Assembly: GCA_964474475.1 (NCBI GenBank)
Contig: CAYYTD010000002.1
Location: 1 to 32,747, forward strand
From: an uncultured Oscillospiraceae bacterium
GTDB lineage: Bacteria; Bacillota; Clostridia; Christensenellales; CAG-314
Direction of reading: 5' to 3'
Length of the DNA stretch: 32,747 bases
Translations under genes and position numbers: made by a program
Notes under the pieces: generated by a model
What the model saw: only the letters and a program-made list of their open reading frames with translations
What the model was told of the DNA's origin: nothing
The model's database searches: none
In this document: piece after piece, positions 1 through 23,310 of the stretch
Layout of the letters: each line of letters starts with the position of its first letter
Numbering within the stretch: position 1 is the first letter of the stretch

Positions 1-246
1 GCCAATTATTGCAAAAAGAGCTACCTAAAATACGACGAGCATCACGTGGAAGGCTACGTACATTTAAGCAAGAAGAAATATACACGCATAGACGAAGAAC
101 TAAAAAACGTAACCATAAGCAACGGAAAACGCAAAAGCATAATAATTGAAAACGAAGAAGGTACGTTTTTAATTATCTATGTGGTCAATGCAAAAGAACA
201 AGTGACAAGAATGAACGATTACAAAGAAAATTATTCCAAATCGTGA
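1..246 (+). CDS. C-terminal fragment of a hypothetical protein (ORF open to the window edge)
   Basis: Frame +1 is open from nt 1 to TGA at 244-246; the track lists only the Met-initiated part 46..246. Low GC, rich in Lys/Glu/Asn. A terminator follows. No motif recognised. Confidence 0.4.
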   Translation, partial: ANYCKKSYLKYDEHHVEGYVHLSKKKYTRIDEELKNVTISNGKRKSIIIENEEGTFLIIYVVNAKEQVTRMNDYKENYSKS

Positions 247-337: not shown

Positions 338-365
338 CGCTCACCGTTTCGGTGGGCGTTTTTTT
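338..365 (+). terminator. Rho-independent terminator
   Basis: CGCTCACC (338-345) pairs with GGTGGGCG (351-358) as an 8-bp stem with one G-U. The loop is 5 nt and a T7 run follows at 359-365. Confidence 0.75.
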
Positions 366-385
366 ACTTTGCGATAGTGGAGTAA

Positions 386-409
386 TTTCAATTTGCGGTT
401 GCGAGGAAA
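386..409 (+). repeat. 24-bp conserved intergenic box, copy 1 (TTTCAATTTGCGGTTGCGAGGAAA)
   Basis: 22/24 identical to 2914-2937. Both copies lie between near-identical terminators and a consensus promoter. Confidence 0.6.
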
Positions 410-522
410 CATTGCTGTAAATTTTCCGCTGTCCGTTTTACTCCGCAATCTTGTGCCCCTGCCAGGCACTGTGCCACTTTGGTACAAATAGTAAAAATTT
501 GCCAAAAATATTTTTCATACTA

Positions 523-552
523 TTGACAAAAAGGCAGGGGGGGGGGTATAAT
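523..552 (+). promoter_or_regulatory. Sigma-A-type promoter of the pilin gene: TTGACA, 18-nt spacer, TATAAT, with a G10 tract in the spacer
   Basis: TTGACA at 523-528 and TATAAT at 547-552. The spacer is AAAAGGCAGGGGGGGGGG, with the G run at 537-546. An A/T-rich UP-like stretch lies at 490-520. Confidence 0.7.
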
Positions 553-861
553 CTTGAGCGAGAGGAAGTAATTTCTTCGTCGCAGTAGGTTAAGTGAATG
601 GAGCACTCCGTTCCACTCACCACACTGGCGGAAAACACCTCCCTGCGATTGACTGTCAAGCGCAACGCCACCTTTGTGCAACGGTTGCTTTACTTTCACG
701 GTTCAATTTGTCCCTCTTCCAACCGACTTTGTCGGAGACAATGCGAATGGTGCACAGGCAAGGCAACAATTGAGCAAAAATAGCCGTTGCAATTGAAAGC
801 ACATGTAACCCAACCGTCAGGAAAGGACCATTCTCAAATAAATACAAGGAGAATTAGTAAC

Positions 862-2610
862 ATGAACAACAGCAAAAAACGCGGCTTTACTATCGTAGAG
901 TTAGTAATAGTTATTGCCGTTATTGCAATTCTTGCAGGCGTGCTTATTCCCACCTTTTCAAGTGTTGTAAACAAGGCAAATCAAGCTAACGATACCGTTC
1001 TCATCAAGTCGCTCAATACCTCGCTCAAGTCTGCCGAGGCTCTCAACGGCAAAGCGCCCACCATGCACGACGCCTTGCAAATCGTCAAGGAAGACGGCTA
1101 CGACGTAAGTAAAATCAAGTCCACTGCCAGCGGCAGCCAAATTATGTGGGATAGCGCCAACAACTGCTTCGTGTACGTAAAAGAGGGTGTAATCAACTAC
1201 ATTCCCGATTCCAAAACGGTTACTGCACAAAACTACCAATTGTGGACTATTGTAGAATCTGGCGACCTCAGCACCGAATACAGCAACTACCTTGCAGATG
1301 GTTTTACGGCTACCGGCACTCTTGCAATTACCACCGGCTTGGACGTTGGCAATGTTGAAGGCATTACCGCAATAGAGTACGTGCGCACAAGCGGTTCTGC
1401 TCAAGAAGTAATCATTCGCACCAACTCATCTGCAACGACACTCACCATCAACGCAGCAACGGACACCGTTCATCACTACGGCGCAATTGCCAGCGTAAAC
1501 GTAATTGCCTGCGCACCGAGTTCCTACCACGAAAACGGTCAAGTTAAAGGCAATATTGTAGTGGAACAAGGCAGAGTAGAAGTTGCCGCAAACGCAACAG
1601 TAAGCGGCGCAGTTTTGGTAACCGGCAATAGCGTTAAAGTAGACGTAAAGAACGACACGACCAAAGTTAACGTTAAGTCTAGCGTTACTCTACCCGAAGG
1701 CTCTGTTTCCGGCGTTGAACCTATTAATGCTACTATCGTAACCGACGAAGCTACGTTGAAAGCAGCAGTTGCCTCCGGCGGCACGATTTATCTTGGTGAA
1801 GATATTGTTTACACGAATACGCTTGTCGCTGAAGGTGTTGATATCACATTGAATTTGAATGGTCATAATATTACTTCAACTAAATCGAATGTGGCATTTT
1901 TATCAATTAAAGGTCAGAATACAATGACCAATGTTGTCTTGGAAGGCAACGGAAGTGTTACTGGTTCCGCACAACAAGGTTTGTTGAAAATAAAAAACAC
2001 TAAGTCTCGCTTAACAATTAATGGCGGAGTGTATGAAAACACTTGGACTTCCAACGGTGGCGGATATGTCTTGCATCAAGGATACGAAAAAAACAAGACT
2101 GGCGGAAATGTTATTATCAATAACTGTGAAATGAAATCATATGATGCGACACTGTATTTGGGAAGAAAAGGTACACTTGAAGTAAATGGTGGTAAGTTTG
2201 AGGCGAAAAATAATTTCGTGATTGGTACTTTAGGGGATGCAAACTATGGATCAAACAAAATTATCATAAACGGCGGCACTTTCAATGGAAATATTGAGTC
2301 CACAGGATATATCGCTTGCGGCATCTACATTGCAAATAATGACACGCTTACAGTTAATGGTGGTACGTTCAATATTACCGATGGTGTAGGCATTCTTGTT
2401 CGTGCTGGAAGCGCAACAATCGGTAAGGGCGTTGTAGTTAATCTACTGAATTCCGGCAAGGGTATTACTGAAGGAATGATTGGTGACGTAAAAACCAAAA
2501 TAAGCCCTACGGCGGTTATCGTTGTAGATGCACTGGAAGATGCAACCCCCACCATCACCAACAACTCTGTATATGGCGTTTATGACTCTGATGGCAACGA
2601 AATTAAATAG
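862..2610 (+). CDS. Large modular type IV pilin (582 aa): prepilin class III signal plus a beta-rich stalk plus a beta-helix-like C-terminal module
   Basis: AAGGAG RBS at 846-851 and ATG at 862. The N-terminus MNNSKKRG|FTIVELVIVIAVIAILAGVLIP has the canonical G/F cleavage site, Glu5 and a hydrophobic helix. The C-terminal half carries four [IV]NGGx[FY] repeats (INGGVYEN, VNGGKFEA, INGGTFNG, VNGGTFNI), typical of right-handed parallel beta-helix coils. The track ORF start at 787 lacks an RBS. Confidence 0.85.
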   Translation: MNNSKKRGFTIVELVIVIAVIAILAGVLIPTFSSVVNKANQANDTVLIKSLNTSLKSAEALNGKAPTMHDALQIVKEDGYDVSKIKSTASGSQIMWDSANNCFVYVKEGVINYIPDSKTVTAQNYQLWTIVESGDLSTEYSNYLADGFTATGTLAITTGLDVGNVEGITAIEYVRTSGSAQEVIIRTNSSATTLTINAATDTVHHYGAIASVNVIACAPSSYHENGQVKGNIVVEQGRVEVAANATVSGAVLVTGNSVKVDVKNDTTKVNVKSSVTLPEGSVSGVEPINATIVTDEATLKAAVASGGTIYLGEDIVYTNTLVAEGVDITLNLNGHNITSTKSNVAFLSIKGQNTMTNVVLEGNGSVTGSAQQGLLKIKNTKSRLTINGGVYENTWTSNGGGYVLHQGYEKNKTGGNVIINNCEMKSYDATLYLGRKGTLEVNGGKFEAKNNFVIGTLGDANYGSNKIIINGGTFNGNIESTGYIACGIYIANNDTLTVNGGTFNITDGVGILVRAGSATIGKGVVVNLLNSGKGITEGMIGDVKTKISPTAVIVVDALEDATPTITNNSVYGVYDSDGNEIK

Positions 2611-2735
2611 CAAGATTTAATTTGCAATTTTTTTGTGCAAATAGTCGTAACGCAACGAATTCGTTCAATGGCGAATGGTTTCAATTTGACGGACTATTGC
2701 AAGTTGGCAAAGTTAATTCTCAATAATGGTCACGT

Positions 2736-2764
2736 CCGCTCGCCATTTCGGTGGGCGGATTTTT
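2736..2764 (+). terminator. Rho-independent terminator (near-duplicate of 338-365)
   Basis: CCGCTCGCC (2736-2744) pairs with GGTGGGCGG (2750-2758) as a 9-bp stem with two G-U pairs. ATTTTT follows. Confidence 0.65.
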
Positions 2765-2913
2765 CTACTCTTTTCAAATTAGCCTTATTACGTTTCACCT
2801 TGTCGTTTTTTTGTTTTAATGGTGTTGGCGTTTTCGTGTTTTTTGTTTCTATGTTGAACGGCGGGGTGCTGATTTGTTGGGTGCTTGTGCAAGGTGGGAG
2901 GAACGTCAGCAAA

Positions 2914-2937
2914 TTTCAATTTGCGGTTGTAAGGAAA
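2914..2937 (+). repeat. 24-bp conserved intergenic box, copy 2 (TTTCAATTTGCGGTTGTAAGGAAA)
   Basis: 22/24 identical to 386-409. TTGCGGT (2921-2927) can also pair with ACCGCAA (2942-2948). Confidence 0.6.
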
Positions 2938-2997
2938 TTTTACCGCAACGGTGGCGCTGTAAAATACAAATATGGTCAAATTGTATCAATTTGGCTG

Positions 2998-3026
2998 TTG
3001 ACAGAAACTATGCCGTGTGTTAAAAT
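2998..3026 (+). promoter_or_regulatory. Sigma-A-type promoter for the lipoprotein gene
   Basis: TTGACA at 2998-3003, 17-nt spacer, extended -10 TGtTAAAAT at 3018-3026. Confidence 0.6.
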
Positions 3027-3083
3027 GCATTCACAGTGATAAACGCGGCACACGCCGCCAATATTATAAGGGAGGATATCACA

Positions 3084-3527
3084 ATGAAAAAGACAGTAAG
3101 AATTTTTGCTCTTGTTGCGGCGTTGACTTTGTGCCTCGTTGCGCTTACCGCTTGTTCGGACAAGTACGGTGCACTTAAGAGCGCATTTGAAAAAGAAGGT
3201 TTCAAAGAAAACCAAGTTGTAGAAGGCGTTGCTGAACAAATTAAGCAAGACCTTGAAAAACAAGAACTTGAAGTTAACATTCACGTTCTCACCAAGGGCG
3301 TTGGCGCTGTTGCAATTATTGAGTTTACTGCAACCGAAGAATTGGCACAAGCCATCAAGGACAGCAACACTTTGCAAGGCTTTATTAAAGACGTGCAAGA
3401 AAGCGAAGATGCAAACGAATTTTACAACAAGCTTGTAGAAGCAGGCTATGCAAAAGGCAACTGCTTGTGCATTCCCCTCACCGTTAAGGCATCCACAATG
3501 ACGGAAATCGTAAAATCCGTAAAGTAA
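3084..3527 (+). CDS. Small lipoprotein of unknown function (147 aa)
   Basis: GGAGG RBS at 3071-3075 and ATG at 3084. Signal peptide MKKTVRIFALVAALTLCLVALTAC with lipobox LTAC. It has its own promoter and terminator. Confidence 0.8.
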   Translation: MKKTVRIFALVAALTLCLVALTACSDKYGALKSAFEKEGFKENQVVEGVAEQIKQDLEKQELEVNIHVLTKGVGAVAIIEFTATEELAQAIKDSNTLQGFIKDVQESEDANEFYNKLVEAGYAKGNCLCIPLTVKASTMTEIVKSVK

Positions 3528-3539
3528 TTAACCACAACA

Positions 3540-3575
3540 AAGAACCGCAAGGAAACGCCCTTGCGGTTCTTTTTG
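3540..3575 (+). terminator. Rho-independent terminator
   Basis: GAACCGCAAGG (3542-3552) pairs with CCTTGCGGTTC (3559-3569) as a perfect 11-bp stem. A T5 run follows. Confidence 0.85.
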
Positions 3576-3609
3576 CTATTTGCAATAGTGCAATTTGTCA
3601 CCACGCTTC

Positions 3610-3656
3610 GCCAACAAATTGCATTAAGCTTTGCCAACAAATTTTGCCAACAAATT
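3610..3656 (+). repeat. Three direct copies of GCCAACAAATT
   Basis: Copies at 3610-3620, 3633-3643 and 3646-3656. The first and third extend to GCCAACAAATTGCATT. The third overlaps the -35 element. Confidence 0.8.
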
Positions 3657-3683
3657 GCATTTTGTATTTGTATATGGTATAAT
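3655..3683 (+). promoter_or_regulatory. Promoter of the minor-pilin/assembly operon
   Basis: TTGCAT at 3655-3660, 17-nt spacer, extended -10 TGgTATAAT at 3675-3683. Confidence 0.55.
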
Positions 3684-3807
3684 TAACTATTATATGTGTG
3701 TACGTGTACCCTTTTGGCGCATTTTGCTGCCAAAAGCAAACGGTTGGCTTTGCCATTTCCCTTTTGAAGACAAAAGCCTACGCACAAATTTGCAAGGAGG
3801 AAAGGCT

Positions 3808-4335
3808 GTGCGAAAGAAACGTAGCGGAGTGACGCTGTTGGAAATTACCATAGTTATGGCGGTTACTGCAATAGTGGTTACCGGCGTGGTGTCCTTGTGC
3901 GTTTCGGTGCAGGGCGTTGCCGCACGAACCAACGAAGTTACCGATGCCATTGCATCTCTTACCGACGTGCGCGACATGGCAACTAAGTGGATTGCCCACT
4001 TTGACGGTTTGCCGGGTGCAACAGTTACTGCCCTTGCAGATAGTGCCGAAAGCGGCGAACCATCGGAGGAAAGCAACAAAACGATACTTCGTGCCACGGT
4101 GGAAGGGAACAATTACGACTTCTACTTGGACAAATCTGCAAAAAAATTTGTTGCCCAGTACGAAGGCAAAACGCTTTACGCCAATGCCAACACAGTCATC
4201 TTTTTGGGCTTCGACTGCCGCACGAGCGACAACTTGATTGTGTGCAGCGTAACTTACACCCTTACCAAAAGCAATGGCAAGCTTAGCGTAGAAGAAACGA
4301 GCTTTGTAATTGCCGCAAGAGGAGGCACACAATGA
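3808..4335 (+). CDS. Type IV minor pilin / pseudopilin (175 aa)
   Basis: GTG start at 3808, preceded by AAGGAGG at 3794-3800. N-terminus VRKKRSG|VTLLEITIVMAVTAIVV has the prepilin cleavage motif with Glu5. The upstream part of track ORF 3631.. has no RBS. Confidence 0.8.
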   Translation: MRKKRSGVTLLEITIVMAVTAIVVTGVVSLCVSVQGVAARTNEVTDAIASLTDVRDMATKWIAHFDGLPGATVTALADSAESGEPSEESNKTILRATVEGNNYDFYLDKSAKKFVAQYEGKTLYANANTVIFLGFDCRTSDNLIVCSVTYTLTKSNGKLSVEETSFVIAARGGTQ

Positions 4336-4715
4336 AAAGGCGCGGTGTAACTCTTGTTGAAACGGTAATAGCGATGTTTTTGATAACGGTGCTTACGGCA
4401 GGCGCCTTTACGCTGTGTTCTACTGCGGTGGTGCGTGTAGACCGTGTTGAAAAGCAATTTAGGGCACAATCGGCATGCAAGGACGTGATTGAATGCTACA
4501 AGGTGACGGAAAGCGTTTCGACAGAACTTGAAAACAAATTGAAGATAGTTAACTCCAACGCAAAATTGGCGGAAAGCGGCTACGTACTGACCTACGCCGA
4601 CTTTAACGTGGTGGCATCGTTAAGCGAAGACAAACACACTCTGACGGTGGTTGCCACCGATTTTAGCGGTGACGAGCTGTGCAAAACTTCCTATTTTAAG
4701 GGAGGTGCGGCATGA
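4332..4715 (+). CDS. Type IV minor pilin / pseudopilin (127 aa)
   Basis: N-terminus MKRRG|VTLVETVIAMFLITVL. ATGA start/stop overlap with the upstream gene. Confidence 0.8.
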   Translation: MKRRGVTLVETVIAMFLITVLTAGAFTLCSTAVVRVDRVEKQFRAQSACKDVIECYKVTESVSTELENKLKIVNSNAKLAESGYVLTYADFNVVASLSEDKHTLTVVATDFSGDELCKTSYFKGGAA

Positions 4716-5218
4716 CGAAACTACGCGGCAAGCGCGGAATGGCAATGATGATGGTCATCGTTGCAATGGTAATTCTCAGCTCATTTGGCGTGCTTATTAC
4801 CACTTGCGCAGTCAAAATGCATTCGGACGTTGCGCGGTACGTAAAAAACACCGAAAATTGCGACGCCATGGGCGAATACTTTTTGAGCAAGGCAAATAGT
4901 CTTACAGATTTTTCCAACGAAACGAGCGTGGTTGCCAATTTGAAATCGGCATTTTCAAGCAATGCGGCCGATAACCCCTTTGCGGAATACGGCGTTAACC
5001 CCGCAGCGAATGCCGAGGGGGAATTTCCTGTAAAACGGGCGCAGATAAGTGCAAAATGCGATGGTGGCTCAACCGCAGTTATGTTAAACGTCTATGCGGC
5101 GGATTCGGTAAAACTTCAGGTTGTGGCACGCAAAAGCGGCACGGAAAAATTTACAATTTTAGTTTGGAGTTACGACGAGGTCGTAACGGATATTGAAACC
5201 GTCACGTTGCCGAGTTGA
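4712..5218 (+). CDS. Pilin-like protein lacking Glu5 (PilX/GspK/ComGG-like, 168 aa)
   Basis: N-terminus MTKLRGKRG|MAMMMVIVAMVILSSFGVL. ATGA overlap with the upstream gene. Confidence 0.65.
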   Translation: MTKLRGKRGMAMMMVIVAMVILSSFGVLITTCAVKMHSDVARYVKNTENCDAMGEYFLSKANSLTDFSNETSVVANLKSAFSSNAADNPFAEYGVNPAANAEGEFPVKRAQISAKCDGGSTAVMLNVYAADSVKLQVVARKSGTEKFTILVWSYDEVVTDIETVTLPS

Positions 5219-5240
5219 CGGACGGTTTGGAGGAAAAAGG

Positions 5241-6482
5241 ATGGCATTAGTACCCGAAAAAAGAAATACGGTGATAGGCATCGATGCGCAAAGTTCGTCC
5301 ATAGTGTTTTTTACCATGACGGGGGATAACCGCATTACTGCGCAATTGAAAAAAGTTCCGTTTAAGGGCACCTTGTACGATGAAAGCTTTTACGACACTT
5401 TGGCTACGGAAATTGCCGAGTATCTAAAGCAAAACCCCGTGCGCCAGCCCACGTCTTTTGCTGTGGTGGTTACGGATAACGCCGTAATTACGGACACCTT
5501 TGCCGTGCCGTCGATAGGCAGGAAGGGCATGGAACAGGCGTTTAAGATGGCTGTGGAAAACATGTACGTAAACGCATCCGACTTGGAAATTAACAAGGTT
5601 TTGGCATATTCCAACCGTCAAAGCGCAACCTATTCCGTAACGATGATGCAAAAAAACGTAATTGCGGGCATCACGCGTGCTTTTAACGCAAACAAAATAT
5701 CCCCGCAGTTTATTACTTTTCCGTACAACGGACAAGCCAACGCGGTTACCAAGTTGCGCCCCAAGTTCAAGAGGTCCTCTTACCTGTTTGCCGACGTCAA
5801 GGAGGGCTACACGCGCCTTTGCTTCATCGTAAAGGGACGTGCCGTTGGCGGAACTGTGTTGCCCTTTGGCTACGAAATACTAAGCAACAAACGCGTTGTT
5901 GCCGAAGACATGCTTTTCGACCATTCTTTGGGAGAGATTACCGTTCTTAATGCCCATGAAAAGGCAAAGGACAAGGCAATGACCGTCTTCCACGAAGACG
6001 CCCAAGGCGATGAGGACGAATTGCAAACGGCCGAGACGGAACAGGAAGAAAACGTATTTGCCGACTTTGAAGATGAAGAGGGTGTGCAGCAAGAGGGCGC
6101 CAACACGGTGCTGTTGCAACAGCAGGCAGGCAAGGCGTATCGCAAAACCGCCCGTAAGCTTCCCAAATTTATGATTAAACCTACGCCGACGGACGAGCAG
6201 GGCTTCACCTACGAAAATTTTTGCATCATTGCCAAGTGGATTTTGCTGTATTTGCGTGGCAACGAAAGCATCACTTCCCAAGGCGAGCCGGAGTTCGTGT
6301 TGGTAAACGTTCCTCACAGGTTTGAATATTTGTTTGAAATGATCAATCGTCACAAGGAAGAAAACGGAATTGAATTCGTTTCTTTCGATCCGGCAATAGA
6401 AGACAGCGCCGACGTAACCTCTAACCTTGAGTTTTTTGGCGGTTTCTATAGCAAAAAGGTCAACCCGACCAACTTATTTTAG
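5241..6482 (+). CDS. pilM: PilM-like actin-fold pilus assembly protein with an acidic insertion (413 aa)
   Basis: GGAGG RBS at 5229-5233 and ATG at 5241. VIGIDAQSSSIV resembles the PilM phosphate-1 motif, and ADVKEGYTRLCFIVKGRAVGG resembles the second nucleotide-binding motif. It sits where PilM is expected in the operon. An acidic stretch lies at ~5991-6100. Confidence 0.6.
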   Translation: MALVPEKRNTVIGIDAQSSSIVFFTMTGDNRITAQLKKVPFKGTLYDESFYDTLATEIAEYLKQNPVRQPTSFAVVVTDNAVITDTFAVPSIGRKGMEQAFKMAVENMYVNASDLEINKVLAYSNRQSATYSVTMMQKNVIAGITRAFNANKISPQFITFPYNGQANAVTKLRPKFKRSSYLFADVKEGYTRLCFIVKGRAVGGTVLPFGYEILSNKRVVAEDMLFDHSLGEITVLNAHEKAKDKAMTVFHEDAQGDEDELQTAETEQEENVFADFEDEEGVQQEGANTVLLQQQAGKAYRKTARKLPKFMIKPTPTDEQGFTYENFCIIAKWILLYLRGNESITSQGEPEFVLVNVPHRFEYLFEMINRHKEENGIEFVSFDPAIEDSADVTSNLEFFGGFYSKKVNPTNLF

Positions 6483-6484
6483 TT

Positions 6485-7276
6485 ATGTTTGAAGTAATTG
6501 TAACTTACGTAATGTGCGGCTTGTTGGGCTTGTGCGTGGGTAGCTTTCTCAACGTGGTTATTTACCGAGTTCCCAACGGAATGAGCTTGGCAAAGCCCTC
6601 CTCTCACTGCCCCAACTGCGGATACGTACTCAAATGGTACGACAATATTCCCGTGTTGTCTTACCTTATTCTTGGTGGCAAATGCCGTGGATGCAAACAG
6701 CACATATCCTTTAGGTACACTTTGGTAGAGCTGCTCAACACTGCGTTGTGGCTGTTGTGCGCGTGGCAATTCGGCTCAAATATTTTCTACTTGATAGTCG
6801 CTTGCCTGTTTTGCTCGGTGCTAATTTGCGTGACCTTTATCGACATCGAACATCAGTACATTTACGACGTGTTTCAGTGGATTTTGCTTGCGCTGGCAGT
6901 GTGCGCCCTGTTTGCCGATTGGAACGGCATTGTGTGGTGGCACAGGTTGATAGGCGGAGGAGTCGGTTTTGCCTTTTTCTTCATCTTTTACGGTGTTGCG
7001 TACTTAATTTACAAGCAAGAGGCAATGGGCTTTGGCGATGTGTTGCTTGCCGGGGTTTGCGGCTTGTTTTTGGGCTGGAAGAACTTCATCGTTTCGGTGA
7101 TAGTGGCAAGCTTGGTAGGCAGCGTAACTTTGCTTGTGTTGAGAGCAAAGCGTAAAGACGACAAAAAAACGGAGTATCCCTTTGCTCCCTTTATTGCTTT
7201 GGGGGCGGCAGTCGCTTTGTTTTTTGGTGATTATATAGTCAGTGCATATACTTCTTTAATCGGCTTGGGCGCGTAA
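6485..7276 (+). CDS. pilD: Prepilin peptidase (A24 family)
   Basis: GSFLNVVIYRVP, CPNCG...CRGC, WYDNIPVLSYL and GFGDV aspartyl-protease motifs. Multiple TM segments. Confidence 0.95.
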   Translation: MFEVIVTYVMCGLLGLCVGSFLNVVIYRVPNGMSLAKPSSHCPNCGYVLKWYDNIPVLSYLILGGKCRGCKQHISFRYTLVELLNTALWLLCAWQFGSNIFYLIVACLFCSVLICVTFIDIEHQYIYDVFQWILLALAVCALFADWNGIVWWHRLIGGGVGFAFFFIFYGVAYLIYKQEAMGFGDVLLAGVCGLFLGWKNFIVSVIVASLVGSVTLLVLRAKRKDDKKTEYPFAPFIALGAAVALFFGDYIVSAYTSLIGLGA

Positions 7277-7319: not shown

Positions 7320-8561
7320 ATGCCAAAGTACAAATATACGGCGGTAAACGTCAAAAAAGAAAAGTTTACAGGCACTTTCATTGCCGAGAACGAACAAGAT
7401 TTGTCCGAACAGCTTGCCAAGCAAAGTCTGTACTTGGTTTCTTGTTCCATCTATTCCGACAAAACGCCCTCTTCGTTTTGGACGCTTGGTTCGGGAAAGG
7501 TGTCTTACGAAGAACTTGCGGCTTTTTGCCGCCAGTTTGCAACCATGCTTAACGCAGGCATAACCATAATAGACAGCTTGGAAAGCCTAATTCAGCAACC
7601 CTTTTCTTCCTTTTTCAAGAAGATAATGGAGCGCGTGTACGAAGACGTCCGTTCGGGCAAGATGCTTGCCGAGGCGGTAGATACGCACAAAAAGGTGTTC
7701 CCCAATTTCTTCCGCAGCATGCTGTACATAGGCGAAGAAAGCGGCAAGTTGGAACAGGTGCTTTTGTCGCTGGCGGATTATTACGAGCGCGATTGCAAGC
7801 TGAAAAAGCAAGTAAAGTCGGCAATGGCGTATCCCATCATGTTGGGCGTTTTGCTCATAGGCATCATTGCCTTAATGATGTTGTTCGTGGTGCCCACATT
7901 CCGCAGCGCCATGGGCAAGATGGATGTTGAGGTTACCGGTTTGACTGCCGTAGTGTACGACATGAGTGACTTTTTCCTTTCCGAATGGCGCACCATCGTG
8001 CTGGTGCTTTTCGTCGTCGTTGGCGGATTGTTGCTTTTTGGCTTGACCAAGAAAGGAAAGTACTTTTACTCTATGCTAAAGGTAAAATTGCCTCTCATCG
8101 GTCCCGTAACTACGGATATGATAACGGCTCGGTTTGCACGCGGATTTGCCTTGTTAATTTCCAGCGGTATGGATGCCGTTGAGGCGTTGAAGGTAATCAA
8201 CGTAGTGTTGGACAATCCCTATATTGAAAAGAAGTTTGCCAATGCGGTTGATTGCGTTTGTCAGGGTATGAGCCTTACCGAGGCGTTCAAGCAACAAAAA
8301 ATGTTTCCCGATATGCTTATCCAAATGATAAGCGTCGGCGAAAAAACCGCCGGCTTGGAACAGGTTTTGAATAGGTCCTTCAACTACTTTGACGACAAAG
8401 CCGAGCGCGCGCTAACTAGTGTTGCGGCAAAAATCCAACCCATCATGATTATCATCATGGGCGTGGTTGTAGGTGCCATGTTCTTGGCAGTATACTCTCC
8501 CATGTTGGACATAATGAACAACATCGGCAACGTTGGCAGTTACGATGTGCCAAACGTGTAG
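7320..8561 (+). CDS. pilC: Type IV pilus platform protein (GspF/PilC family)
   Basis: GAGGA RBS. The T2SS-F repeat signature (ELAAFCRQFATMLNAGITIIDSLESL) is duplicated later as FARGFALLISSGMDAVEAL. Three TM segments. Confidence 0.92.
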   Translation: MPKYKYTAVNVKKEKFTGTFIAENEQDLSEQLAKQSLYLVSCSIYSDKTPSSFWTLGSGKVSYEELAAFCRQFATMLNAGITIIDSLESLIQQPFSSFFKKIMERVYEDVRSGKMLAEAVDTHKKVFPNFFRSMLYIGEESGKLEQVLLSLADYYERDCKLKKQVKSAMAYPIMLGVLLIGIIALMMLFVVPTFRSAMGKMDVEVTGLTAVVYDMSDFFLSEWRTIVLVLFVVVGGLLLFGLTKKGKYFYSMLKVKLPLIGPVTTDMITARFARGFALLISSGMDAVEALKVINVVLDNPYIEKKFANAVDCVCQGMSLTEAFKQQKMFPDMLIQMISVGEKTAGLEQVLNRSFNYFDDKAERALTSVAAKIQPIMIIIMGVVVGAMFLAVYSPMLDIMNNIGNVGSYDVPNV

Positions 8562-8631: not shown

Positions 8632-10323
8632 ATGAATTTGAATTACGAATTATTGTTGTTTTTCGTTTATAGAAAAATAATTAAACGTAAAGACGTAGAG
8701 CCTATTATGGCGGCATGCAAAAAGCTTCAATTACCCGTTGAAACTTACCTGATTGCCAAAGAGTATTGTACCGAAGTTACCGCGCTCGAGGCAATGGCGG
8801 ATTTCTACTGCATGCCCTGTTGCGAATTGGACATGCTCGACATCGACGAGGATTTGTTTGCGCAGTTCGGCTACGATTTCATGAAAAAGCACAAGGTCAT
8901 TCCCGTTTGTCGCAACAAGAAGGGAGTGTTGTTGCTTGCCGTGGCACGTCCGCTCGATTGCAACGCCGTGTCGGCAATCAATTCCCGCTTTACTTGCCCG
9001 TTGGATTTCGTCCTTGTGCCGGCAGTTCAAATAGACAGGCACATCGACTCCATCGTTGCGGTAATTTCCACCTCAACCGCTCTTGACGACCTCAATGCTG
9101 AAAAGGACAAGGAACTGGCAAAGGCAAACAACGCTGGCGACTTTAACGGCGTTGGCAAGGAAGACGACGTAATTAACACTTCCGCAGTGCGCTTGGTCGA
9201 TTCTATCATTCGTGAGGCAATTCCCTACCGCGCAAGCGACATTCACATTGAGCCCTTCGAAAAGGTAGTTAAAGTGCGTTACCGCATCGACGGCGATTTG
9301 CAACCGCGTGCGGAGTTCCCCATCGAAAGTTACGCTGCAATTTGCGCGCGTATTAAAATAATTTCCGGCATCAACATTGCTGAACGCCGCGTTCCGCAAG
9401 ACGGCCGTATCAACATGATCATCGGCGACAAGGAATACGACTTCCGCGTGTCGTCGTTGCCCACCGTTTACGGCGAAAAGTTCGTTATTCGTATTTTGGA
9501 CAAAACTTCCTTCAACTTTACTCGTGCCGACCTTGGCTTTACCGACAGGGAAAACGCCATTGTCGATAAGATTTTGGAGCGTCCTCACGGCATAGTGCTG
9601 CTTACCGGCCCCACCGGTTGCGGAAAGAGCACTACGTTGTACTCCTTCTTGAAGGAAATCAACAAGCCCAACGTAAATATAGTTACGGTTGAAGATCCCG
9701 TGGAATACACCCTGTTTGGAGTAAACCAAACTCAGGTTAACACCAAGGCAAATATGACCTTTGCTTCCGCCCTTCGCTCCATTTTGCGTCAAGACCCTGA
9801 TATTATCATGATAGGCGAAATTCGTGACGAAGAAACGGCGCAAATAGCCATTAGAGCGGCAATTACCGGGCACTTGGTATTTTCTACGTTGCACACCAAC
9901 GACGCTCCCGGCGCAATAGTGCGTTTGGAAGACATGGGCGTAGAAGATTACCTCGTATCCGATGCGTTGGTTGGCGTTATTGCCCAACGTTTGGTCAAGC
10001 GTTTGTGCCCTGCATGCAAAAAGAAGGGCAAAACCACCGCCAAGGAAATGGAATTGCTCGGCATAAAAGAGCCTGTGACGATTTATCGTCCGCAAGGCTG
10101 TCAGTTCTGCAACGAAACGGGCTACAAAGGCCGTATTGCCGTTCACGAAATAATGCATCTCAACGACGAGATGAGACAAGTAATATCCAAAGAAAAGACT
10201 ATTGAAGGATTGAGAAACATCGCTTTACAAAACGGCATGCACACCCTGTGGGATTCCTGCAAGGAGTACGTGTTGGCAGGGGTAACCAGCCTGCAAGAAT
10301 TGGTCTCCCTTTCCGTCGAGTAA
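8632..10323 (+). CDS. pilB: Type IV pilus assembly ATPase (GspE/PilB family)
   Basis: Walker A GPTGCGKST, Asp/His boxes, and tetracysteine CPACKK...CQFCNETGYKGR. N-terminal T2SSE_N-like region. The start could instead be Met26 (8707). Confidence 0.93.
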   Translation: MNLNYELLLFFVYRKIIKRKDVEPIMAACKKLQLPVETYLIAKEYCTEVTALEAMADFYCMPCCELDMLDIDEDLFAQFGYDFMKKHKVIPVCRNKKGVLLLAVARPLDCNAVSAINSRFTCPLDFVLVPAVQIDRHIDSIVAVISTSTALDDLNAEKDKELAKANNAGDFNGVGKEDDVINTSAVRLVDSIIREAIPYRASDIHIEPFEKVVKVRYRIDGDLQPRAEFPIESYAAICARIKIISGINIAERRVPQDGRINMIIGDKEYDFRVSSLPTVYGEKFVIRILDKTSFNFTRADLGFTDRENAIVDKILERPHGIVLLTGPTGCGKSTTLYSFLKEINKPNVNIVTVEDPVEYTLFGVNQTQVNTKANMTFASALRSILRQDPDIIMIGEIRDEETAQIAIRAAITGHLVFSTLHTNDAPGAIVRLEDMGVEDYLVSDALVGVIAQRLVKRLCPACKKKGKTTAKEMELLGIKEPVTIYRPQGCQFCNETGYKGRIAVHEIMHLNDEMRQVISKEKTIEGLRNIALQNGMHTLWDSCKEYVLAGVTSLQELVSLSVE

Positions 10324-10397: not shown

Positions 10398-13148
10398 ATG
10401 GCGTATCAACATTTTTATTCAAGAGTGCCTTCCAAAGTAAGCATGTTCAACAAAGCCGACGGGTTTGATACCTTTGCTTCGTCGTCAATTTTTTCGCGCA
10501 GTTACGTCGACGACGAGCTTGTCCCCGTGCTTAACTATGCCCCCGGCAAGTACGAGGCGTCTTACATTCGCACGGGCAGTTTGCCTCCCGTTTACTGGCG
10601 TTACGTGGGCAGTCAAAGGCAGGTTGTCGTTAGTTGTGTCAGCTTTATGCCTCGTGATTACACCGGTGAGCGTAGCAGCTGGCTAATTCACACCCTCGTG
10701 CCCAACGACGACGAACGCGCCTCAATCAGCCGCGCAACGGACAGGCAAATTATCAATCCCGAATGTTTTACTACGGACATTTCCGGCTTCAAAATCACTT
10801 ACGCCAACGCGTCCCCGATAAAGGATTACCCCGAATTGGCTTATTCGCCTTTGCGCGTTACGGACGTAGAGCAGTTAACTACTCAGTATTCCTCCTCGCA
10901 ATTAAAAAAGTTAATTTACGCTTTGCTTGCCGTTGCTTGTGGCAAGTGCAAGGCGGTTTACATAGGCGCCGGCAAAGATATGCAAACCATTTCGCAAGAG
11001 GCGCTTGCGTTGATGAACAGGCTTTTGCAGGTATTTCCGCACAACGTGCGGGACAGAATACCCTTCATCACTTACACGACGGAGTACAACAAGCTAAATA
11101 CTTTTGCCGTCAAGTTTTTGCCTTCCGATTGCATGACCATGCCGCCAAGCAAAGGCATTCGTTTCGATTTGCCGTCGAAGGAATCGGACGGCATCAAAGA
11201 GGCGGATTTTGCCTCTGCGCAAATGCTTGTAGAGTTCTTTTACAGTTTGCTTGCGGACAAGCCTTTGCGCCTGCGTTTCGTCAAGTACGCTTTGAGAGCG
11301 GCCGAAACGGACAAAACGCTGCAGGAACCCAACTTTAAAAATCTCAACGCCATCGTTACACTTTTCAAGCAGGTATCCAAGGCGTATACCGAAAAGCAAG
11401 TTTTGCCCGACGATGCACGCGTGTTGGAAATGTTTTCCATTTACGAAAAGTATCGCAACATACTTTCGCCAAAGGAAAGATGCACCGTGTACGGAAGTTT
11501 GGAAAGGTACATTAGGTTGCACCAAGCCATTCCGTCGGCAGTCTTCACCAAGGTGAGCAAGCTGTACCCCAAGGAAACGCCTCACGTCAAGTCGTGTGTT
11601 ATGCGCATAATGCTAGAGATGATTCACACAGACATAATGCGCGACAAGCTTTTTGCATTCATCAAGAACAATTTCGATGCCGAAAACGCCCGCGGCAAAT
11701 CCATTATTTGTCGCCACCTCATTAGGGTTTATTACGGCGGATTTTTGCAACATCAAATTCTTTCTTTGCTGGATGGCTGCTTTGCCGAACAGTCGGAGGG
11801 AACGCAGGATTTCGTTTTGGAAAAACTGTTGTTGTCCATTCGCACGCAGGACGTTCGTTTACAGCTATTTGAATTTTTTGAAAATCAATACGGTGTATTT
11901 ACCGAAGAACAAAAGAAAACACTGTACAAAACGTTGCTGTCGTCGTTAGACGAAGCGGACGAATTGAGCGTTGCCGTGGTGCAATTTGTCGACAAGCACG
12001 TTGGCAAAGAGCCCAAGGAAGTATCGCAGTTGGTCGCCGACCAAATAGTGAGTATTTTGGATGCCGAGTGCCGCCGCGAAAACGAATTGATCAAAGTGCT
12101 GTCGGCAAGCAATGGTTTTTGTCTAAACGCCGTCTTGCCTTCTGTCCTTTCGTGGACTTCTCGCAAGGTTTTTGCCAAGTACGTCGACATAGTGTCTTCC
12201 GCCAACGTTGCAAAGGCAACGGAAATGCTGTGCAACTGTTTCGTTGCTGTGCCTTCTCCGTCGGCAGAGGCAGTTAGTGGTTTGAACAGGGCGGTTGATG
12301 CTCTTGCTGGCAAGCAACCTACAGTGGACTTTTTCCGCCTTGCCGATGCCTACTCCAAGGTGAAAAGGTTTGTTTCGGCAAAATCTAACAGCGTGTGGAA
12401 CAAGCTTGCCGATAGGCTTGCCACCGACGTGTTGCAAGTTGCGCTTTGCTCTCGCGTGCTGGATTGTTTTTGCATCAAACCGCAAGTTGGTTACGTAGAA
12501 AAAGCCAGCAAATTTATTGCCGCTAACGAATTTTTACAAAGTGAACCTCTTTCGCAAGCCGTTTGCGCGGCCAAATGTGTTTTGGACGGCGAATTGCCCT
12601 CCGCCAACATGAAAGGTCTGTGCAAGTTGCTCGGCTACAAGCGTGAGCGCGAAAGCTTCGTGCAGTGTCTCGAAGAGATTCTTGCCGATAGCAAAAACAA
12701 AATTTCGGCAGATAAGGACGTGGAGTATCTCGTTGACGTTTGTGCGCTGGTTTCTTTGCTTGGCAAGGGAAGTTTCAACTGGGAGGACGTTTATCGCCTT
12801 TGCTTTGCCGGAACGCAACGCAAATACGAAATTGCCTTCAAAGAGGATGCCAAAAAGCTTGCAAATGCGGCAAAGTATGCTTCGGTAGATGCGCTTGTTC
12901 AAGTGCTTCGCTGCTGTGCGCGTATGCGTGCATCCGATGCTCCGCAGCAGGTTCGCAACGTGGTTATCGGCAACGACAATAATTCGCTGTCCACGCTCGT
13001 CGCAAAATACACTTCTTCCTACGGCAAAGGCATTCTCAAAGAGGTTGCCGATATTTGCGTGGACGTTGCCGACGACGAAGTTATGGCAATCGTCAAGCCT
13101 GCCAAAACGGGAATTTCGGCCTTCTTTGAAAAGCTGTTTAAAAAGTAA
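10398..13148 (+). CDS. Large cytoplasmic protein of unknown function (916 aa): ~250-aa alpha/beta N-domain plus ~650-aa helical region
   Basis: GGAGA RBS at 10386-10390 and ATG at 10398, 75 nt after pilB on the same strand. No TM segment, no P-loop, and no family motif I can name. Confidence 0.75.
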   Translation: MAYQHFYSRVPSKVSMFNKADGFDTFASSSIFSRSYVDDELVPVLNYAPGKYEASYIRTGSLPPVYWRYVGSQRQVVVSCVSFMPRDYTGERSSWLIHTLVPNDDERASISRATDRQIINPECFTTDISGFKITYANASPIKDYPELAYSPLRVTDVEQLTTQYSSSQLKKLIYALLAVACGKCKAVYIGAGKDMQTISQEALALMNRLLQVFPHNVRDRIPFITYTTEYNKLNTFAVKFLPSDCMTMPPSKGIRFDLPSKESDGIKEADFASAQMLVEFFYSLLADKPLRLRFVKYALRAAETDKTLQEPNFKNLNAIVTLFKQVSKAYTEKQVLPDDARVLEMFSIYEKYRNILSPKERCTVYGSLERYIRLHQAIPSAVFTKVSKLYPKETPHVKSCVMRIMLEMIHTDIMRDKLFAFIKNNFDAENARGKSIICRHLIRVYYGGFLQHQILSLLDGCFAEQSEGTQDFVLEKLLLSIRTQDVRLQLFEFFENQYGVFTEEQKKTLYKTLLSSLDEADELSVAVVQFVDKHVGKEPKEVSQLVADQIVSILDAECRRENELIKVLSASNGFCLNAVLPSVLSWTSRKVFAKYVDIVSSANVAKATEMLCNCFVAVPSPSAEAVSGLNRAVDALAGKQPTVDFFRLADAYSKVKRFVSAKSNSVWNKLADRLATDVLQVALCSRVLDCFCIKPQVGYVEKASKFIAANEFLQSEPLSQAVCAAKCVLDGELPSANMKGLCKLLGYKRERESFVQCLEEILADSKNKISADKDVEYLVDVCALVSLLGKGSFNWEDVYRLCFAGTQRKYEIAFKEDAKKLANAAKYASVDALVQVLRCCARMRASDAPQQVRNVVIGNDNNSLSTLVAKYTSSYGKGILKEVADICVDVADDEVMAIVKPAKTGISAFFEKLFKK

Positions 13149-22913: not shown

Positions 22914-22984
22914 TAGCAAAATGCAAAAAAAAATAAAAAATCCCCTCGTTCGCGTAAAAAACTTGAATTATGCTGAAAAAATAG

Positions 22985-23013
22985 TTGACGATTCGCCCGC
23001 GGTTTGCTAAAAT
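22985..23013 (+). promoter_or_regulatory. Promoter of the ABC importer operon
   Basis: TTGACG at 22985-22990, 17-nt spacer, extended -10 TGcTAAAAT at 23005-23013. A ~300-nt leader follows. Confidence 0.65.
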
Positions 23014-23310
23014 GACACCATTAACAACAGAGAATAGTTATCTCGCCAAGCAATTGGCTCCGAAGGTTCTCGTGGGTTGTATCGATTAGCTAGTAACTTA
23101 ATAGGTTAGTTTTTTGGTAAGCTCGGAATGGCTAAAGGCGAGAGGTATACTATTTTTCGGTTGAATAGTATATGTTCGTTGTGCGGTTTCGGGTTTTTTG
23201 TTGTTCAAATCACAAAACTAACTATACAAAATGATTGACGTTGTGCGGTTTGCAAGGCAGGCTGTGCAATTCAATATAAATTTGACGATTCTATTTATGG
23301 AGGAAAAACA

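Follow-up and report, generated by a model that had tools for sequence, protein, structure and literature searches.

Repeat-mediated phase variation is textbook knowledge for mucosal pathogens such as Neisseria, Haemophilus, Campylobacter, Helicobacter and Mycoplasma, and surface adhesins form the usual cargo class of such contingency loci. In Neisseria meningitidis, opc and fetA possess poly-C tracts in the same type of promoter as porA, and in Mycoplasma hyorhinis poly-A promoter tracts switch the lipoproteins of the vlp family. Tracts of the Bordetella fim or nadA type are differently placed, as they separate an activator site from a core promoter that lacks a good -35 hexamer. To our knowledge, repeat-mediated phase variation is barely documented in the dominant anaerobic Firmicutes of the gut, where switching is known to rely on invertible promoters, methylation and riboswitches.

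The poly-G promoter tract of porA shows a 2-fold drop from 11G to 10G and a 13-fold drop at 9G (PMC3639595). TA repeats in the -35/-10 spacer of hifA/hifB switch the fimbriae of Haemophilus influenzae, and the sortase pili of Bifidobacterium breve and B. longum possess G tracts of 10-12 nt at the first gene of the cluster, heterogeneous in length and shifting in vivo; the B. breve study also mentions promoter-spacer G tracts elsewhere in that genome (PMC9187656). For Clostridioides difficile, c-di-GMP riboswitches are reported to control pilA1 (PMC6200980), and invertible promoters are described for cwpV, flagella, cmrRST and pdcB (PMC11868660). Our literature search turned up no description of a type IV pilin under SSR control in Clostridia.

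The window analysed here, a stretch of 32,747 nucleotides that comprises a whole contig of an uncultured Oscillospiraceae bacterium, contains a type IV pilus locus with prepilin peptidase, platform protein and assembly ATPase: PilD (Peptidase_A24, 6485-7276), PilC (T2SSF, 7320-8561) and PilB (T2SSE, 8632-10323), besides minor pilins. Its sole major-pilin-like gene lies 5' of these genes, with the following features.

338..365, + strand: intrinsic terminator of the upstream 138-aa gene (9-bp stem with 7 G-C pairs, T7 tail), which opens the promoter-bearing intergenic region.
384..522, + strand: upstream promoter region with blocks repeated 5' of promoter P2 (2912-3003), from sequence comparison.
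523..528, + strand: -35 hexamer TTGACA, aligning with the -35 of the paralogous promoter P2.
529..546, + strand: promoter spacer, 18 nt in the window allele, consisting of AAAAGGCA and G10 (sequence reading).
537..546, + strand: G10 homopolymer, the last 10 nt of the spacer and its hypervariable element according to length comparison between contigs.
547..552, + strand: -10 hexamer TATAAT (sequence reading), whose first T adjoins the G run and forms a GnT motif.
553..861, + strand: leader of about 309 nt with a putative start near 559 and the RBS AAGGAG at 846-851 (sequence reading).
862..2610, + strand: long type IV pilin of 582 aa, ATG at 862 (Pfam N_methyl, E=4e-7).
2734..2766, + strand: intrinsic terminator closing the pilin unit (stem of 11 bp, 7 of them G-C; T-rich tail), with 86% identity to its counterpart at 337-365.
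2998..3026, + strand: promoter P2, TTGACA-17-TGtTAAAAT, for the downstream lipoprotein-like gene, devoid of a G tract; paralogous to the pilin promoter as far as the -35.
About 3654-3682: third promoter, TTGCAT-17-TGgTATAAT, 5' of the genes for minor pilin, PilD, PilC and PilB.

The G tract is located between the -35 and the -10 hexamers of the promoter that, as judged from its position, would control the pilin gene. The window has one perfect TTGACA-N16-18-TATAAT arrangement, not one of 100 shuffles that preserve dinucleotides contains it, and the pilin promoter is the sole 12/12 site within the first 20 kb. Likewise, no G or C run other than G10 exceeds 5 in 32.7 kb (next longest: 5), with runs of at least 8 expected 0.29 times. 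The initial annotation had placed hexamers, 18-nt spacer and G run (537-546) exactly at these positions, had calculated correctly that one G fewer results in a 17-nt spacer, and had regarded chance as less likely. It had also described the promoter as upstream of the pilin; the pilin does lie downstream, but is not adjoining, as 310 nt connect the promoter to the ATG. With at least 10 G's the run exceeds the length at which G/C tracts are prone to slippage (about 8 or more), and it is uninterrupted, 10-15 G's long, in all related contigs.

GnT is a documented hotspot of T-to-G substitution (PMC12344412). At positions 546-547 such a substitution in G10T would extend the G run and harm the -10 hexamer at once; it occurs in none of the observed alleles. 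A TACTAT motif at 518-523 was considered as a promoter transcribing the G run (reiterative transcription) and was rejected by inspection, as it has no usable -35. Elsewhere in the window, an A9 run (22925-22933) is located just 5' of the -35 of an M1-peptidase promoter on the - strand, outside any promoter spacer. The divergent SBP/oligopeptide ABC operon near this run (22985-23310) possesses a TTGACG-17-TGcTAAAAT promoter and a leader of about 300 nt, which has no Rfam match.

The long pilin consists of a class III signal peptide, an α1 helix, a small head and a large C-terminal β-solenoid domain. Its N-terminus reads MNNSKKRG|FTIVELV and carries the G/FTxxE N-methylation motif, and the hydrophobic helix matches solved type IV pilins (PDB). 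An AlphaFold model built with 25 homologues (pLDDT 88.7, pTM 0.79) places a helix at residues 11-62, followed by a small head and an extended β-rich domain. In the PDB, the folds that match this domain best are right-handed β-solenoids, including SRRP-BR of L. reuteri, pneumococcal PfbA, phage tailspikes and pectate lyases, all with weak E-values, so the β-solenoid assignment holds at the level of fold class only. Residues 1-232 are 99% identical to the closest homologue (P0002), the remainder about 45%. At the DNA level, comparison with the corresponding contig of a sister strain (L001) yields 98.5% identity at 712-1557, no similarity at 1557-2204 and 92.6% identity at 2204-5609; the dissimilar cassette of about 650 nt covers pilin residues ~233-448. 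This mosaicism suggests cassette replacement or diversifying selection on the putative β-solenoid domain. From its sequence and model the pilin is a predicted surface-exposed, strain-variable, adhesin-like subunit, and hence of the surface and host-interaction type of cargo. Exact-protein look-ups of the window pilin and of one minor pilin returned no match, the pilin being found on no other contig, and a look-up of the lipoprotein-like gene returned only contigs that begin inside the pilin gene. Directly 3' of pilB, at 10398-13148, the window encodes a 916-aa protein with GAP1-N2 and GAP1-M domains (GTPase-associated protein 1), which have been described in conflict or defence-type systems.

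The pilin gene appears to be a monocistronic unit of leader, 582-aa pilin and terminator. Since the downstream genes have promoters of their own and a terminator follows the pilin, the G-tract promoter is predicted to control the long pilin alone and not the assembly machinery. The region 337-528 is paralogous to 2736-3003, and the two copies part directly after the -35. As the paralogy ends at this hexamer and P2 has an ordinary 17-nt spacer, P2 provides a built-in control and speaks for TTGACA being a genuine -35. Both regions share the blocks AATTTCAATTTGCGGTTG..AGGAAA (384-407 and 2912-2935), the palindrome-like CAAAT.GTA..AATTTG (484-501 and 2968-2989) and CT.TTGACA.AAA, and the segment 384..522 may represent a shared operator or UP region. 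CAAATTG/CAATTTG repeats are also present 5' of the third promoter (3586-3682), and the blocks in front of all three promoters may form the operator of a common regulator. The + strand of the leader (553..861) contains no other promoter-like or terminator-like site. Its only ORF, of 61 aa (598-783), has a weak RBS and is unrelated to the small ORF found in the leaders of relatives (see below). A riboswitch or leader RNA of the c-di-GMP-II type was considered and rejected: the leader has no Rfam match at the gathering threshold or up to E=10, a folding z-score of -2.1 with only modest predicted structure, and no consensus structure with the leaders of relatives. Weak Rfam matches near the promoter fall only on the terminator hairpin at 338..365. 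Additional levels of regulation are suggested by the 309-nt leader together with the motifs common to the upstream regions.

Other copies of the promoter were reached via the upstream gene fragment (window 1-243), leading through the proteins P0121, P0122 and P0123 to the contigs L010-L018. These belong to two lineages 3-4% diverged from each other, A being 99.6% and B 96-97% identical to the window. Tract lengths are as follows.

Window, lineage A: G10 then TATAAT, reads through.
L010 (SRR22923250), lineage A: G10 then TA, contig end.
L018 (SRR14160746), lineage A: G10 then TA, contig end.
L016 (SRR14160769), lineage A: G11 then T, contig end.
L012 (SRR6824177), lineage B: G12 then TATAAT, reads through.
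L014 (SRR6824189), lineage B: at least G12, contig end inside the tract.
L013 (ERZ27271042, MEGAHIT), lineage B: G15 then TATAAG, reads through to the pilin.

Besides the window, six contigs, all of other samples, thus possess G10, G10, G11, G12, at least G12 and G15 between identical flanks, at least seven alleles with the window included. Three of the alleles stem from contigs that break off 0-2 nt behind the tract. Within a lineage, identity amounts to 99.9-100% over 1-2.5 kb and the tract is essentially the sole difference. L016 and L018 have 0 differences in 1015 nt, yet carry G11 and G10; a single mismatch separates L010 from L016 in 2550 nt; between L012 and L013 the only differences in 1384 nt are three G's and one adjacent base. 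Wherever a contig continues, the base after the tract is T (then A), so the length differences are G indels and not T-to-G substitutions. L012 has the -10 hexamer intact, and L010, L016 and L018 keep as much of its start as they show (T or TA). The tract is uninterrupted, with at least 10 G's, in both lineages, and its length is polymorphic between near-identical strains with constant flanks, a pattern to which Illumina G-tract artefacts may contribute. The observed spacers measure 18-23 nt, and no allele with G9, the predicted optimum, is among the contigs.

The initial annotation had proposed phase variation or a rheostat and a comparison of tract length between related genomes as a check. 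The lengths do differ (10, 11, 12 and 15 with identical flanks), and this polymorphism among near-identical strains lends comparative support to its reading. Of the outcomes it had named as counter-evidence, an absence of the tract in close relatives is contradicted by all six contigs that reach the site, and a one-off assembly artefact by three contigs (10, 12 and 15 G's) that read into unique sequence on both sides. In L013, at 1194-1199 (window-equivalent 547-552), the -10 hexamer reads TATAAG instead of TATAAT, 6 nt after G15, the sole substitution outside the tract relative to L012. Either the change is genuine and inactivates the -10 of a strain that has long been OFF, or sequencing right behind the tract erred towards G.

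Assembled lengths at such a tract are to be read with care. The four Logan contigs L010, L014, L016 and L018, from four samples, end exactly 12 nt after GGCA, with G10TA, G11T or G12, and this fixed offset may stem from branching of the graph, from k-mer abundance or from the 'G's end' effect of Illumina sequencing. Contig ends at the tract may reflect sequencing failure, true heterogeneity or both, and these four fit either equally. According to the B. breve study, Illumina reads can become G's past a G tract and deposited tract lengths can misstate the true distribution (PMC9187656); G15 of L013, with its adjacent T-to-G, may be partly artefactual or inflated. Three further contigs stop 18-59 nt short of the tract, and the contig breaks at window 712-738 (L001 and L012) fall on an A/G SNP that distinguishes strains present together. 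A pattern scan for the promoter with a variable gap in JGI metagenomes and GTDB representatives had 0 matches, as had a scan with the left flank only; the species is absent from those sets or broken at the site.

The PilB query retrieved 42 loci from species-representative genomes, all of them uncultured gut Clostridia (Christensenellaceae, Oscillospiraceae, Acutalibacteraceae and similar labels). The closest, from a Hadza sample, has 91% PilB identity, and its contig stops short of the pilin. A strong promoter is identifiable in seven loci, 320-520 nt 5' of a homologous long pilin, consisting of TTGACA or TTGAAA, 16 or 17 nt, and TATAAT, TAAAAT or TACAAT; the -35 of the window resembles these, and a G run is present in 0 of the 7. 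The promoter and long-leader architecture is therefore conserved with a normal spacer of 16-17 nt, and the G tract was added in the present species. Because family-level relatives do not possess it, the tract is young and species-specific. G and C runs of 6-7 occur 5' of relatives' pilins, none of them in a recognisable promoter spacer. The leaders of most such relatives contain, between promoter and long pilin, a small membrane-protein ORF (44-63 aa, ...PVI.WSV.GGV..V.ALALIFWL, good RBS; L024, L026, L034, L042, L043, L045 and L047), without a homologue in the window.

In 659 kb of PilB-related loci, only one other G/C run of at least 8 is present. It is a G11 at L048:3959-3969 (MAG of an uncultured Oscillospiraceae, CAZSIF010000012.1), at the 3' end of the coding sequence of a short major pilin. 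There G9, G11 and G12 yield products of 117-119 aa, and G10 and G13 yield 189-190 aa with a tail rich in Thr, Gly, Ser, Asp and Asn. A search of the protein collection for the extended in-frame pilin found only the 119-aa form. Conceivable, though less likely than not, is a repeated and independent origin of poly-G contingency switches on the type IV pilin genes of uncultured gut Clostridia, in a promoter spacer here and at a coding 3' end in L048. If so, gut Firmicutes would generally use SSR phase variation of their pili to colonise the host, a strategy missed so far because short-read assemblies break or mis-call at such tracts.

The length of the spacer between consensus hexamers is a main determinant of the strength of sigma-70-type promoters, 17 nt being optimal and 16-18 nt functional. 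We consider it likely, with a probability of roughly two in three, that the G run is a hypermutable SSR in the spacer of a sigma-A promoter and that it acts by slippage as a switch or dimmer of the monocistronic long-pilin gene. Slipped-strand mispairing during replication would add or remove G's, and each step would shift the -35 by 1 bp, about 34 degrees of twist, relative to the -10. Only G8-G10 set TTGACA 16-18 nt from TATAAT; from G11 onwards the best alternative hexamer matches at most 2/6. G9 would provide the optimal 17-nt spacer and maximal expression, an expectation that gains weight because the long-pilin promoters of relatives have 16-17-nt spacers. G8 and G10, with 16 and 18 nt, would be reduced but functional, and G11 or longer (19 nt or more, no substitute -35) would be low or OFF. 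The G10 allele of the window is accordingly placed by this scheme at the upper edge of the ON range, sub-optimal, one insertion from OFF and one deletion from maximal, and G12 and G15 of lineage B are predicted to be OFF. As the observed spacers are 18-23 nt, most strains are predicted to be low or OFF. A population would hold heritable, reversible variants that make much, little or no fibre or adhesin subunit, the assembly genes keeping their own promoters, and the variants would be sorted by host immunity, phage or niche.

Four other explanations compete with such a slippage switch. The tract may be real and mutable and yet have no functional effect, a neutral hotspot in a promoter whose expression is set by an activator or by leader control. 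Every observed allele lies above the optimum, at 18-23 nt, as unconstrained drift would look; the relatives manage without a tract; and a long leader and shared upstream motifs are at hand. Length changes of 1-5 bp, however, should not be neutral for this promoter, because spacer length is a primary determinant of promoter strength, and the tract has stayed unbroken in two lineages 3-4% diverged and is the window's sole such run inside its sole perfect promoter, so that we regard neutrality as unlikely. Improbable, too, is a tract of fixed length whose contig differences and breaks are Illumina or assembly artefacts (phasing, 'G's end', k-mer graph tips): read-through contigs with 10, 12 and 15 G's come from different samples and two assemblers, G10 is repeated in three independent lineage-A samples, and lengths group by lineage (10-11 in A, 12-15 in B), as random error would not. 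This explanation draws on the T-to-G change of L013 6 nt after G15, on the four Logan contigs ending 12 nt after GGCA whatever their content, and on the precedent of reads turning to G's past a G tract and of database lengths disagreeing with the true distribution (PMC9187656).

The remaining two would give the promoter a different kind of switch. If the tract set the spacing between an activator site and the -10, as in the Bordetella fim poly-C or nadA type, and so phased a regulator at the shared upstream motifs with RNA polymerase, longer alleles could be ON, which would suit the spread of allele lengths and the absence of the predicted optimum; the upstream blocks common to the pilin promoter and P2, and the CAAATTG/CAATTTG repeats also found 5' of the third promoter, offer candidate sites. 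A perfect TTGACA at 18 nt, and TTGACA or TTGAAA at 16-17 nt in relatives and in P2, point instead to direct use of the -35; we regard this explanation as very unlikely. DNA inversion or recombination of the fimS or cwpV type, with an incidental G tract, is the least probable of all, barely to be credited: all nine contigs with the P0002 pilin variant do break in the leader, which two orientations would produce, but the breaks at 712-738 are explained by the A/G SNP just mentioned, the promoter is not flanked by inverted repeats, neither the window nor the upstream contigs contain a recombinase, and both L013 and the window cross the site unbroken and in one orientation.

If the slippage switch is confirmed, an uncultured commensal bet-hedges the display of a strain-variable pilus adhesin, and homopolymer-aware analysis of metagenomic reads could report its ON/OFF state in vivo. 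As a practical warning, promoters with such tracts escape MAG annotation, because assemblies tend to be interrupted there.

Among described systems, porA of N. meningitidis is the closest studied one: the promoter of this major surface protein gene likewise has about 9-11 G's separating its -35 from its -10, and their number varies with the strain; graded expression in single-G steps is a feature of porA and a prediction here. The present locus differs in its host, Gram-positive-type gut Clostridia and not a proteobacterial pathogen, in its cargo, an adhesin-like type IV pilin and not a porin, and in its perfect hexamers, its 309-nt leader and its alleles longer than the optimum. With hif and vlp it shares the principle that repeat number in the -35/-10 spacer switches a surface fibre or lipoprotein. 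Those systems, however, use dinucleotide or poly-A repeats, divergent and overlapping promoters in the case of hif, chaperone-usher fimbriae or lipoproteins as cargo, and other organisms. Bifidobacterium, the nearest case among gut commensals and likewise with a G tract linked to a pilus, is an actinobacterium whose tracts are intragenic (translational frameshift) and belong to sortase pili, whereas the tract described here lies in the promoter spacer of a type IV pilin. C. difficile belongs to the class Clostridia as well and has heterogeneous or regulated pili and surface proteins, but the present leader matches no Rfam riboswitch, no inverted repeats flank the promoter, and no recombinase is encoded in the window or the upstream contigs. 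The locus provides a clean natural example, with a perfect promoter, one tract, a putatively monocistronic adhesin-like pilin and alleles from G10 to G15. The class of mechanism is well known, and it is the host that is unusual, a Gram-positive gut commensal with a type IV pilus.
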